From the NCBI RefSeq assembly GCF_963676685.1, contig NC_092350.1, forward strand, positions 18,166,001 through 18,230,000: DNA of 64,000 nt. The letters run 5' to 3'. This DNA is from Mytilus edulis. Its lineage: Eukaryota. A program made the translations under genes and the position numbers. Shown in pieces: positions 18,299-27,763 of the stretch. The notes under the pieces were generated by a model. That model did not search any database. It was not told where the DNA came from and was given only the letters and a program-made list of their open reading frames with translations. Every line of letters starts with the position of its first letter. Positions within the stretch are counted from its first letter, which is position 1.

Positions 18299-18393
18299 AT
18301 GGTTGAAACTTACATGTGGTTATTAATAACAGCTATTTTATTTCTGACGACCTCGGCAGCAGTCGAAGACGACGTTTCAAACCGAGGAAAACA
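18299..18393 (+). CDS. CALC: Calcitonin-like precursor coding exon 1 (signal peptide)
   Basis: ATG at 18299; hydrophobic core WLLITAILFL followed by small residues TSA/AA; donor ca|gtatgt at 18394; candidate acceptor AGs end at 18279 or 18288. Confidence 0.85.
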
Positions 18394-21300
18394 GTATGTA
18401 TAAAACCATTTATTCTCTCTATTTAACAATGAAAGTTAACCATGACCCAATTCTTGTATTTGAGACACATTTAATTCATCTGGTAAGCTCAAAGCCATTT
18501 ATTTAGGTAGCGACACCATCAAAATAGACACGAATTAGTGGTTTAAACGGTTTTATGACAACTAAGCTTGGAATTACGAAACTTAAGCTCAAAAACAGGT
18601 ACAAAATATATCAACCACTAAGTTGATATGGAACAAAACCTATAGTGCAAATGGCCTTGCATTGACTACGGGAGAGTAATCATGTTAGGGCTATCAGATA
18701 GCAGCAATTGCATTCAAGAAGTACTTGTAAATAAAGAATATGTCTCACAAAGTTGATACTATATTCCAGAGCTTGCATTTCCTGTCACCAATTCTTTGAT
18801 AAATGGTTTAAGCTAACAAGGCAGTTGTTAAGTTAAAATCATTTCTTCGCAAATTTTACGGACAACTTCATGAGTTGGTTGACAGTTATGAAATATCTGT
18901 TTCACGGATGACGACGAATATAATAATATGTTCCAATTGTCGTAACCAAAATCCTGTCCTCTTTTTCTCAAATTTAACCTACTAAATTAAGACGTATCTT
19001 CAGGTTTGTTCATCACACGAGCTTCACGACTGGTGCCGCATGTCGAGCATGGTCCACTTACCCTTCGCGAGCATCTAAGATCAACATGTTGTGTTTAGTT
19101 TTCTGTTGTTTATCTCCCTTCGTTTTTGTTTCGCATTTGAAATGGTACTCTTCAGTTTGTTTTCTATTTCAAATTTGAATATACTTTGACATATTTAGTC
19201 TCTCTTTTATACCACCCAGTAGTAGGACACCAAAGAAAAACATATCGAATGTTCGATTTTGTTATGCAGTGATAGAAAATCCATCATTTTGGAACTCCAT
19301 GATATATGAATACATATCAATTGGTATTGAAGTGACTTATTATAAATCGCGCATTGCATTATATAAATAAAAAGATTTGGTATGAGTGCCAATGAAACAA
19401 TTCTCCATCCAAGTCACAAGTATAAAACGTTAACAATTATAGGACTTCACCACAGAGAATTAACTGAGCAAAGTTGGCTTTCACCGAACAGCAAGCTAAA
19501 ATGTATCAAGAGCTCCAACATGTAAAACTATTCAAACAGGAAAACCAACGGTCTAATCAATATAAAAAACCGCATCAACAAATGACAACCACTGAACACA
19601 GGCTCCTGTCTTAGAACAGCGGGTTTAAACATTTTAACAGGCGCAAACCTGAATGAATCTGTCTATGATGGCCTGATACAGTAAATGAAATTAACCTCTC
19701 TAAAGCTAGGATGAATCAACTTCACAAATAGTACACGATGATCTTGAAGTATAGATTCTGGGTACTGACAGTGTTTATTATCTTTATAACGTGCTATAGA
19801 GTTCTTTAATTTGTCTTTGTGAATATTACTTTTACTGTTTAGTCTATTGTTGTTGATATCCATTTGACATGGCTCGGTTCTTAAATTCCGTCATTGTGCT
19901 ATTTTATGGTAAAAGTTTTATGTTCTTGTTTTTAATTTTTACTAATGTGCTTTTCTAAAGGCCTTTTATATTTCTTAGTTGACATATTTGTTTATTTAGA
20001 TAGTGCTTTAGAAAATAACACCATGTGGACTGATGTATCCCTTTTTTGACTTTGTTACCTATTATGTCTATTTGCTATGTTCAAACATCGTTGTCAATAG
20101 TGAGAAGTTTAAGCTAGCTATAGAACCAGGTTTTAATCCACCATTTTCTACATAAGATCGAGTCTGTACCATATCAGGGAATGACAGTTGTTATCTATTC
20201 GTTTGTTGTGTTCTTGATTTTGATTTTGCCATATGATTAGGGATTTTCCATTTATAATTTTCCTTGGAGTTCGGTATTTTTTTATTTCACTTTTTCAAAT
20301 ATTCTAAATATATGAAAGCTTCCCAAGAAAAAGTTGACTCAAATCTTTTAATGTCGTCTTTAGTGTAGCTTTATATGTATTTTGATATCAGACATATGTG
20401 CGCTTCGTGATTAAGTGTCATGAATCGATGCATTTCCCTTTTAATACATTATCTTATTCATGTCTACGCGTTTATCCTTGTATGGATTAGCGTTTGAAGG
20501 TAGACAAAACCTGCTACGTTTGCCTTGAATTCTTACTTTATCTTAATGGTACTTGACAGCTTATTAGACAATAAAAATATTGTTCGTTAGATGAATCAAG
20601 GTTGACATTCGTCATTGCTACCTTTATTAATACTGAAACGTTAGCATCAACCGGACACTTTCATACATTTATAGACTTAATTACTTTTCCATTAATGACT
20701 TACAGCAATGAAAGAGTTACTATTGTTGAAGGTATAACAATATATATTGAACGTTAGACAATAACGACACCAACGTGTAACCAATATAACAATTAAGACT
20801 ACCTGTTCCAGCAGGGCTTTGTTTACAGGATTGGAGGTGTGTAATTCGTATTATTCGACAGATCTTTTATGTCCATTATTTAGAACAATAAAAACAACAT
20901 AGGGAAGAAATTTAAACAAATGAGGTTATTAGTATAACGTATCCGTGAAATGAGAATACGAAATTCTTTTGCCGGAAAAATATTCGTGCTAGTACCCTTT
21001 TTTATCTACTGATTTTCTACTTCTTTTATTTATATTGTTTGATAAATTGAATTTTAAAAGATATTGTTTCATAACAAAATTGGCTTAGTTTTCCAAGCAT
21101 ATGATATAATGGAAAAATGAAATATGAGGATTATATTCAAATAAAAATTATAAAGACTTTGTCAAAAAAGAACACATTATGTCAAATCAATGAGAAAAGT
21201 TTAATTTTTGTGGTAGATTTTTCAATTTGTCAAAAAGATCATAAAGTTACTCGAATAATATTAACTATTATAGAAGAATACATTAAAAAGCGATTTGCCA

Positions 21301-27300: not shown

Positions 27301-27763
27301 TCAAACACTGTTTTCATGTATGAGATATCCTTCGTAACAGTAAAGGAAAGCGACAAATCTATTTTACCAAATTGCTCGCTATTCGCTATATCCTTAGGAT
27401 TTTTTGTCCAATTTTGACGGAAGCGATACGAAGACTCCATATAAGAGTTGTTTCCCCTAATGCATTTGAATACGTGATATACATTTGTAACTGATTAACC
27501 ATAAGTGAGGAGACCTAAGGTCCAAAAAAATAAAACATTTTTGTTTGTTAATTTTCATTTAATTTTACTTTAATTTTATGTAACGTGTAACGTCTTTTAT
27601 TTACAGGAAGAAGAGTTGCCAGTTAAATCTCGGGTTCCACTGCCAGACACAAGAGTACTCCGCCATTGCTGACATGTTTAACTTCCTAGGGAGTGGAAGA
27701 AGCCCAGGGAAGAGAAGACGACGATCTATTCAACAGATTCTGAAAACAAAAGAAACATTATAA
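18299..27763 (+). CDS. CALC: Calcitonin-type neuropeptide precursor encoding two calcitonin-like peptides (~189 aa, 5 coding exons)
   Basis: Exons 18299-18393, 24464-24547, 25628-25771, 26075-26164 and 27607-27763 have GT-AG boundaries, all introns are phase 2, and they join into a 570-nt ORF: MVETYMWLLITAILFLTTSA (signal peptide)-AVEDDVSNRGKQLIQQLDDVRHNLKSVTESLEKLSDVIEEE-CTWGGGMSDEMCSTVDIDEIQRSFQVINDRNSP-GKR-SVPSMDPSLRQFLQDLLRKKEMIQRLKHILTYADNTVHEERKK-SCQLNLGFHCQTQEYSAIADMFNFLGSGRSP-GKRRRR-SIQQILKTKETL*. An N-terminal Cys pair plus C-terminal Pro-Gly-Lys-Arg is the calcitonin-family signature. Confidence 0.92.
18700..19200 (+). mobile_element. Degraded Penelope-like RT fragment and tail in a calcitonin gene intron
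   Basis: Frameshifted translation YSRACISCHQFFDK...VKLKSFLRKFYGQLHELVDSYEISVS matches the Penelope-like RT thumb pattern. Confidence 0.6.
22895..23085. repeat. 14-bp minisatellite (CATTACAAACCTTC)n, ~13-14 copies
   Basis: Near-perfect tandem array with one shortened unit. Confidence 0.95.
24464..24547 (+). CDS. CALC: Calcitonin-like precursor coding exon 2 (helical pro-region)
   Basis: Acceptor tttcag| and donor |gtaagt; 84 nt, phase 2-2; encodes LIQQLDDVRHNLKSVTESLEKLSDVIE. Confidence 0.85.
24565..24870. mobile_element. Palindrome-bearing element of similar architecture
   Basis: ttctgattg motif followed by the hairpin aggaatgactgtaa...aataacccgc/gcggtttatt...ttacagtcattcct. Confidence 0.5.
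25628..25771 (+). CDS. CALC: Calcitonin-like precursor coding exon 3 (peptide 1)
   Basis: Acceptor tttcag| and donor |gtaagt; 144 nt, phase 2-2; peptide CTWGGGMSDEMC...NSP at 25632-25730, followed by the GKR amidation/cleavage signal. Confidence 0.92.
26075..26164 (+). CDS. CALC: Calcitonin-like precursor coding exon 4 (second helical spacer)
   Basis: Acceptor tttttag| and donor ag|gtaaat; 90 nt, phase 2-2; encodes FLQDLLRKKEMIQRLKHILTYADNTVHEE(R) and completes the RKK site before peptide 2. Confidence 0.82.
26593..27172. mobile_element. TIR MITE in the last coding intron of the calcitonin-like gene
   Basis: ~35-bp imperfect TIRs aaaagagtaggtctggtaa...ttttggcc / ggccaaaa...ttactgtacctactccttt; internal inverted repeat aaatgaaagtggccgcat/atgcggccactttcattt. 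Confidence 0.7.
27607..27763 (+). CDS. CALC: Calcitonin-like precursor last coding exon (peptide 2)
   Basis: Acceptor ttacag|; KK-SCQLNLGFHC...RSP (27614-27706)-GKRRRR; TAA at 27761-27763; AU-rich 3' UTR with AATAAA at 28033 and 28280. Confidence 0.92.

Follow-up and report, generated by a model that had tools for sequence, protein, structure and literature searches.

The stretch of Mytilus edulis DNA analyzed here (NCBI RefSeq assembly GCF_963676685.1, contig NC_092350.1, positions 18,166,001 to 18,230,000 of the forward strand; below, the window) comprises 64,000 nucleotides (nt) with 31% G+C and no N. It very probably carries the Mytilus calcitonin-like precursor gene CALCII, which has six exons and whose predicted secreted product would yield two peptides, each with a disulphide ring and a C-terminal proline amide. 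The gene is already known, since a precursor with both peptides was described in 2020 and one of them was assayed (PMC7200681). An earlier note, made from the letters of this stretch, had proposed a hidden precursor spread over five short exons and 9.5 kb. The joining of five short exons into a precursor was borne out by GT-AG joints in contigs of four studies. The extent proved too small: besides the five coding exons there is at least a sixth, which is non-coding and has its 3' end at 4456, and the gene measures about 24 kb. Likewise, the gene is indeed invisible to the open reading frame track, but an identical protein is already deposited at NCBI without a name. The exons are as follows, in positions of the window.

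4190..4456, plus strand: first exon, non-coding; its 3' end is firm and its start approximate (4081-4190, assuming that the longer contigs are colinear)
18280..18393, plus strand: first coding exon, with a 19-nt leader, the ATG at 18299 and the predicted signal peptide
24464..24547, plus strand: coding exon 2 of 84 nt, encoding the amphipathic helix of the pro-region; splice joints in contigs
25628..25771, plus strand: coding exon 3 of 144 nt, encoding peptide 1 together with the GKR signal; joints in contigs
26075..26164, plus strand: coding exon 4 of 90 nt, encoding a spacer helix and RKK at residues 115-117; joints in contigs
27607..28042, plus strand: last exon, with peptide 2, GKRRRR, tail, stop at 27761-27763 (coding part 27607-27763) and 3' untranslated region

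Joining the five coding exons at GT-AG sites gave 570 nt in one open frame of 189 amino acids (aa), with all four introns in phase 2. Splice joints were counted over 11500-29500 in contigs of four runs from four studies. Twenty-four sequencing runs had been found, none of them recorded as RNA and 18 guessed to be RNA. The RNA origin of the runs is thus a guess, yet the joints skip GT..AG introns, and the DNA flanking the exon within 16950-18700 is uncovered in four of four runs. Such contigs show neither strand, expression level nor true transcript ends, and rare variants are dropped from them. All four junctions predicted in the earlier note were present: 18393>24464, 25771>26075 and 26164>27607 were detected in four of four runs and 24547>25628 in three, every joint skipping a GT..AG intron. 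In three runs, a single contig of 1125-1138 nt carried all four joints. At the 3' end the contigs stop at 28010-28042, and an AATAAA lies at 28033.

A second contig mapping covered 16950-18700 in four runs, three of them new and one used before, spanning three organism codes. Contig cover was confined to 18278-18393 in all four. The same 30 letters precede 18278 in the contigs of every run, and they match the window at 4425-4454. A donor, AAG/GTATGT, lies at 4456/4457 and is spliced to the acceptor at 18280. Since these leader letters stand before the donor, the gene has at least six exons, a length of about 24 kb and a first intron of about 13.8 kb.

The whole window was searched for stop-to-stop frames of at least 25 aa containing PG[KR][KR]. 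Only two were found, both on the plus strand and both inside the gene. The pattern of a Cys ring followed by PG[KR][KR], which was devised after the peptides had been seen, occurs twice in the window; as a control for chance, two copies were reached in none of 200 Markov-simulated windows (mean 0.02). Chance exon assembly or a pseudogene is excluded for practical purposes by the spliced contigs, the identical annotated protein and this control.

The spliced product begins with a predicted signal peptide of approximately residues 1-21 (hydrophobic core with a hydropathy peak of 3.1 in the window starting at residue 8; cleavage point placed by eye). In the pro-region, residues 33-59 form a predicted amphipathic helix with a hydrophobic moment of 0.48, and a helix is also present there in a low-confidence model. 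The predicted peptides are encoded as follows.

25632..25730, plus strand: peptide 1 (CALCIIa), C62-P94, 33 aa, 10 residues between the Cys, followed by GKR; predicted Pro-amide
26103..26162, plus strand: predicted 20-aa spacer peptide E118-E137, flanked by two RKK sites
27614..27706, plus strand: peptide 2 (CALCIIb), S141-P171, 31 aa, 7 residues between the Cys, between RKK and GKRRRR; predicted Pro-amide

The amidation signals read P94-G-K-R and P171-G-K-R-R-R-R, and the Cys pairs C62/C73 and C142/C150 are invariant in 29 of 29 aligned rows. Peptide 2 was thus found as the earlier note had described it (31 aa, 7 residues between the Cys, amidation signal). For peptide 1 the spacing of 10 residues and the GKR were correct, but its length of 33 aa is a convention. 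A dibasic site stands directly ahead of peptide 2 (RKK) and is absent ahead of peptide 1; counting from the first Cys is conventional because no such site precedes C62. The basic residue nearest upstream is K53, with 8 residues intervening. A fold model built from 29 sequences shows a helix after each ring and one helix reaching residue 64, at a predicted local distance difference test (pLDDT) score of 65, a predicted template modelling (pTM) score of 0.31 and values below 50 for the rings.

The product was compared with known proteins. A search with the last exon returned three proteins among eight candidates, the best being a 189-aa Mytilus galloprovincialis protein (P0003). The protein cluster of P0003 has five members, all from Mytilus and all named uncharacterized or unnamed. 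XP_071119946.1 (P0006, uncharacterized protein, M. edulis by source) is identical to the window product over 189 aa (0 differences), so that the lack of a name in the database is all that sets it apart. P0003 is identical at 186 of 189 positions (T27S, H89N, A133T) and is, judged by eye, the same sequence as Mga.CALCII in the supplement of PMC7200681. This bore out the comparison with molluscan calcitonin precursors that the earlier note had proposed, and the tree groups the product with P0003 (support 100/98). As given in PMC7200681 (Cardoso et al. 2020), M. galloprovincialis CALCII is likewise 189 aa long and contains the same pair, CALCIIa and CALCIIb, and its CALCIIa is likewise stated to lack a consensus cleavage site at its N-terminus. 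The main text of that paper does not use the word exon; the exon structure comes from the present analysis. CALCIIa of the window equals the published peptide except for Asn in place of His at peptide position 28 (residue 89; 25713-25715). Asn89 is common to both M. edulis proteins, while the other three Mytilus proteins have His, and the contigs of runs X2 and X8 match the window at this codon. Within Mytilus, peptide 1 varies at this one of its 33 positions; peptide 2 is identical across the five aligned Mytilus proteins and P0004.

Of the features of bilaterian calcitonin-type precursors, the product has a predicted signal peptide (by hydropathy), an N-terminal Cys pair in each peptide and a Pro-Gly-basic amidation signal; a dibasic site directly before the peptide is present for peptide 2 only. 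The earlier assignment to the calcitonin family, with two-peptide precursors known from bivalves, matches published CALCII (PMC7200681). Vertebrate calcitonin likewise has an N-terminal Cys ring, about 32 aa and a C-terminal Pro-amide (Table 2 of PMC7200681). A helix after the ring, predicted by the low-confidence model, would be a further common trait. Vertebrate calcitonin differs in its ring of 5 and in the release of one peptide per transcript through alternative splicing, and its similarity to the mussel peptides is given as only 17-28% (PMC7200681). The sequence matches obtained from Pfam and PDB were coiled-coil noise. Because no match to vertebrate calcitonin was among those listed from either source, membership rests on the motifs together with published phylogeny and pharmacology. 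A DH31-type identity was rejected, as this type is defined by the lack of an N-terminal Cys pair (PMC12638048, PMC6425005) and both mussel peptides have two Cys.

A genome search returned two matches, the CALCII gene and a second one near 27.99 Mb on the same contig (G000:C7:27979128-27994500), about 9.8 Mb away, which encodes the CALCI peptides. The coding exons of CALCI measure 95/90/165/90 nt plus a last exon, compared with 95/84/144/90 in CALCII, on the same phase-2 plan with five coding exons. Both precursors share the helix-peptide-helix-peptide layout and the Pro-amide signals. At the joint of exons 2 and 3, CALCI carries KKR before the ring, whereas CALCII has EE. The CALCI rings have 8 and 7 residues, and the last peptides of both precursors are about 45% identical.

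We then surveyed the family. With a profile search, 81 proteins were retrieved at E <= 0.001, and the survey comprised 84 (80 of the hits plus P0003-P0006): 26 of CALCII type, recognised by an aromatic residue within the last ring; 49 of glycine type; 4 others; and 5 lacking the peptide pattern. The last ring has 7 residues in all 26 CALCII-type and all 49 glycine-type proteins, and each of the CALCII-type ones stands behind a dibasic site. The first slot behaves differently. Among two-peptide precursors, a dibasic site no more than 3 residues before the first ring was found in 0 of 17 of CALCII type (within 6 residues in 1 of 17) versus 16 of 17 of glycine type. The first ring ranges from 6 to 10 residues in the former and from 7 to 10, mostly 8, in the latter. 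In at least six long CALCII-type proteins (P0016, P0017, P0018, P0027, P0041, P0042), the first slot no longer has its Cys pair or its amidation signal. A midpoint-rooted tree was built from 32 of the 34 two-peptide rows, with trait columns kept and the long multi-peptide P0028 and P0029 left out. The 17 CALCII-type proteins fall on one side of a branch with support 100/99. The absence of the dibasic site maps to this one branch and hence counts as one loss rather than 17. The literature searched, which did not take in the oyster receptor paper or figures, held no description of this family-wide first-slot pattern; it may be in print.

Two bivalve relatives resemble the mussel gene closely. 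Pacific oyster XP_011456505 (Cgi.CALCII) and scallop Calcitonin 2 each have two peptides, no dibasic site beside the first ring and an aromatic second ring of 7. Their first rings have 8 and 6 residues, compared with 10 in mussel CALCII. The oyster protein is probably the source of Cragi-CT1a/CT1b. For scallop Calcitonin 2, two spacer peptides were reported by mass spectrometry (supplement of PMC5996578), and one of them (20 aa) aligns with mussel E118-E137. The orthologous scallop precursor is therefore cut in ganglia, as its spacer peptides show (PMC5996578).

Neuropeptide precursors enter the secretory pathway by a signal peptide, convertases cut them at basic sites, a carboxypeptidase trims the ends and an exposed Gly yields the amide. 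By analogy with this standard processing, the CALCII product would lose its signal peptide on entering the secretory pathway and would be cut by convertase at K96-R97, R115-K117, R138-K140 and K173-R177. Amidation would follow at G95 and G172, and disulphide bonds would form between C62 and C73 and between C142 and C150. We hold signal removal, the four cuts, both amidations and both bonds to be highly probable. The peptides would then act on class B G-protein-coupled receptors, which is likely. Peptide 2 combines all processing signals with conservation and is for this reason the likely main ligand. We consider it somewhat probable that the receptor of this conserved peptide belongs to Cluster A (L-DCc2), as seems to be the case for its counterpart in oyster.

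Published work bears on these steps. Two mussel precursors are reported in PMC7200681, CALCI and CALCII, both of which contain a pair of peptides 31-33 aa long. Expression of CALCII in M. galloprovincialis was mainly in mantle and adductor muscle, where it was amplified. CALCRIIc was the only receptor activated by synthetic CALCIIa, which began at the first Cys; the half-maximal effective concentration (EC50) was 2.6e-5 M (26 μM). At 10 μM the peptide raised mantle calcium from approximately 401 to 513 ppm (parts per million) and lowered acid phosphatase (PMC7200681). The earlier suggestion of a role in calcium handling in the shell-forming mantle was thus right, and already published for CALCII. 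Synthesis of CALCIIb failed, hence it was not assayed (PMC7200681). According to PMC8557429, the mussel receptors assayed belong to cluster L-DCc1 and gave micromolar responses only; oyster calcitonins are cited there, second-hand, as nanomolar on L-DCc2, which equals Cluster A of PMC7200681. Also second-hand is the pairing, in oyster, of CT1b with Cg-CT-R and of CT2 with CTR2 (PMC12638048). The earlier note had also suggested that different ring sizes address different receptors. Because the first ring varies from 6 to 10 residues and its slot is decayed in several relatives, the sequences argue against ring size as a tuned receptor code.

Several observations weigh against the interpretation of CALCII as a calcitonin-type precursor acting through peptide 2. 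Pfam gave no match for either peptide exon. The calcitonin family was absent among the 12 Pfam matches for the precursor and among 25 of 80 families listed for the alignment, and calcitonin was absent among 14 weak PDB sequence matches. The fold model is weak (pLDDT and pTM as above). The literature examined contained no mature mussel peptide identified by mass spectrometry, and neither ringed peptide appears in the scallop mass-spectrometry table (PMC5996578). PMC8557429 calls the micromolar result for CALCIIa puzzling, an EC50 of 26 μM being far above usual hormone potency. Finally, oyster CT1b was equated with peptide 2 from names and precursor layout.

For peptide 1, the sequence gives a firm C-terminus. 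The N-terminus depends on the reading adopted, since the slot may yield a short peptide or a longer one that includes the pro-helix, or may be in decay. If both peptides are full ligands, the 33-aa CALCIIa would be freed by a non-standard cut and act on CALCRIIc, and CALCIIb would act on another receptor. This is possible, if doubtful. CALCRIIc responded to CALCIIa alone among the tested peptides, and CALCIIa raised mantle calcium (PMC7200681); the 10-residue ring is also kept in all mytilid-like relatives seen (P0003-P0009). Yet the EC50 is 26 μM, 8 residues separate C62 from the nearest upstream basic residue, K53, the first ring ranges from 6 to 10 residues across 17 relatives, and of the two CALCII peptides the assays in PMC7200681 cover CALCIIa only. 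Equally doubtful is a release of peptide 1 as a molecule of about 63-73 aa with the amphipathic pro-helix before the ring, of which the published 33-mer would be a fragment. No dibasic site lies between the signal peptide and C62, the KKR of CALCI is replaced by EE at the same exon joint, and the first-ring dibasic site is found in 0 of 17 CALCII-type but 16 of 17 glycine-type precursors. The first-slot amidation signal is kept, with Pro in 15 of 17, and the low-confidence model would place one helix up to residue 64. However, single-basic cuts are possible at R29, K31, R41, K45 and K53, in several relatives a K or R stands 0-4 residues ahead of the Cys, and the loss of the site on one branch is one event rather than 17.

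It is slightly less likely that the slot of peptide 1 is decaying or accessory and plays little part in signalling, the gene working through peptide 2 alone. At least 6 of 26 CALCII-type relatives have lost the first-slot Cys pair or amidation signal, and CALCIIa shares only 13-23% with other mollusc peptides (Supplementary Table 3 of PMC7200681). Against this, only one position of 33 varies within Mytilus, both Cys and PGKR are retained in the distant mytilid-like P0004 and P0005, and synthetic CALCIIa acted on tissue (PMC7200681). A combined scenario, which we put forward tentatively and regard as rather unlikely, is that a single loss of the convertase site on the CALCII branch produced a long, amidated helix-plus-ring hormone (about 63-73 aa, with a ring free to drift). 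The 33-aa CALCIIa would then be a weak fragment, and the true high-affinity pair would be CALCIIb and a Cluster A receptor.

The gene itself adds nothing new, and the value of the family survey is as a pointer to the puzzle of the micromolar potency of mussel calcitonin (PMC8557429). The survey suggests that the starting point of the assayed peptide was arbitrary, and that no assay has brought the best-conserved peptide together with the likelier receptor cluster. This bears on the regulation of shell-building calcium transport in farmed mussels.

Alternative exon forms were also considered. The intron before exon 4 contains one related feature.

25846..25885, plus strand: decayed duplicate, within the intron, of the exon-4 acceptor and the codons that follow it; identity to 26051-26090 is 37 of 40 nt, a score reached by 0 of 500 shuffles

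The whole duplicated exon-4 stretch (25846-25998) sits 205 nt upstream of the true acceptor. Its acceptor at 25870 would permit an in-frame exon of 129 nt (202-aa product) or frameshifting forms. No joint at 25870 was present among 15 of 86 listed, and depth over 25924-26524 fits exon 4 alone; as contigs lose rare variants, use of this acceptor is not thereby disproved. In sea cucumber, a peptide exon is skipped (PMC12638048). Here, skipping of the peptide-1 exon, which would keep the frame, was rejected on the unbroken contig through all exons in three of four runs. An internal duplication of a module of helix exon and peptide exon found no support, exon 2 aligning with exon 4 no better than shuffles (CALCII 990/2000; CALCI 283/2000).

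The intron after the first coding exon holds a 14-nt tandem repeat of about 14 copies (22895-23085). Contig depth is very high in four of four runs over interspersed repeats at 12100-12700, 15700-16300, 19300-20500, 23500-24100, 26500-27200 and 28300-28900. Two neighbours were identified in the window; neither equals a gene in the published synteny legend, and no further synteny comparison was made. An exon of an HSPBP1-like gene lies at 45216-45623 on the plus strand (best PDB match Hsp70-binding protein 1, E 7e-08). On the minus strand, a GNPTAB-like gene has an exon at 60622-60978 (match to GlcNAc-1-phosphotransferase alpha/beta at E 3e-38; Stealth_CR3). The frame at 61281-61607, which has no Pfam match, may be a further exon of the GNPTAB-like gene. 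At 36529-36961, open frames of 135 and 111 aa overlap on opposite strands; neither has a Pfam match, and one of them may be a coding exon.

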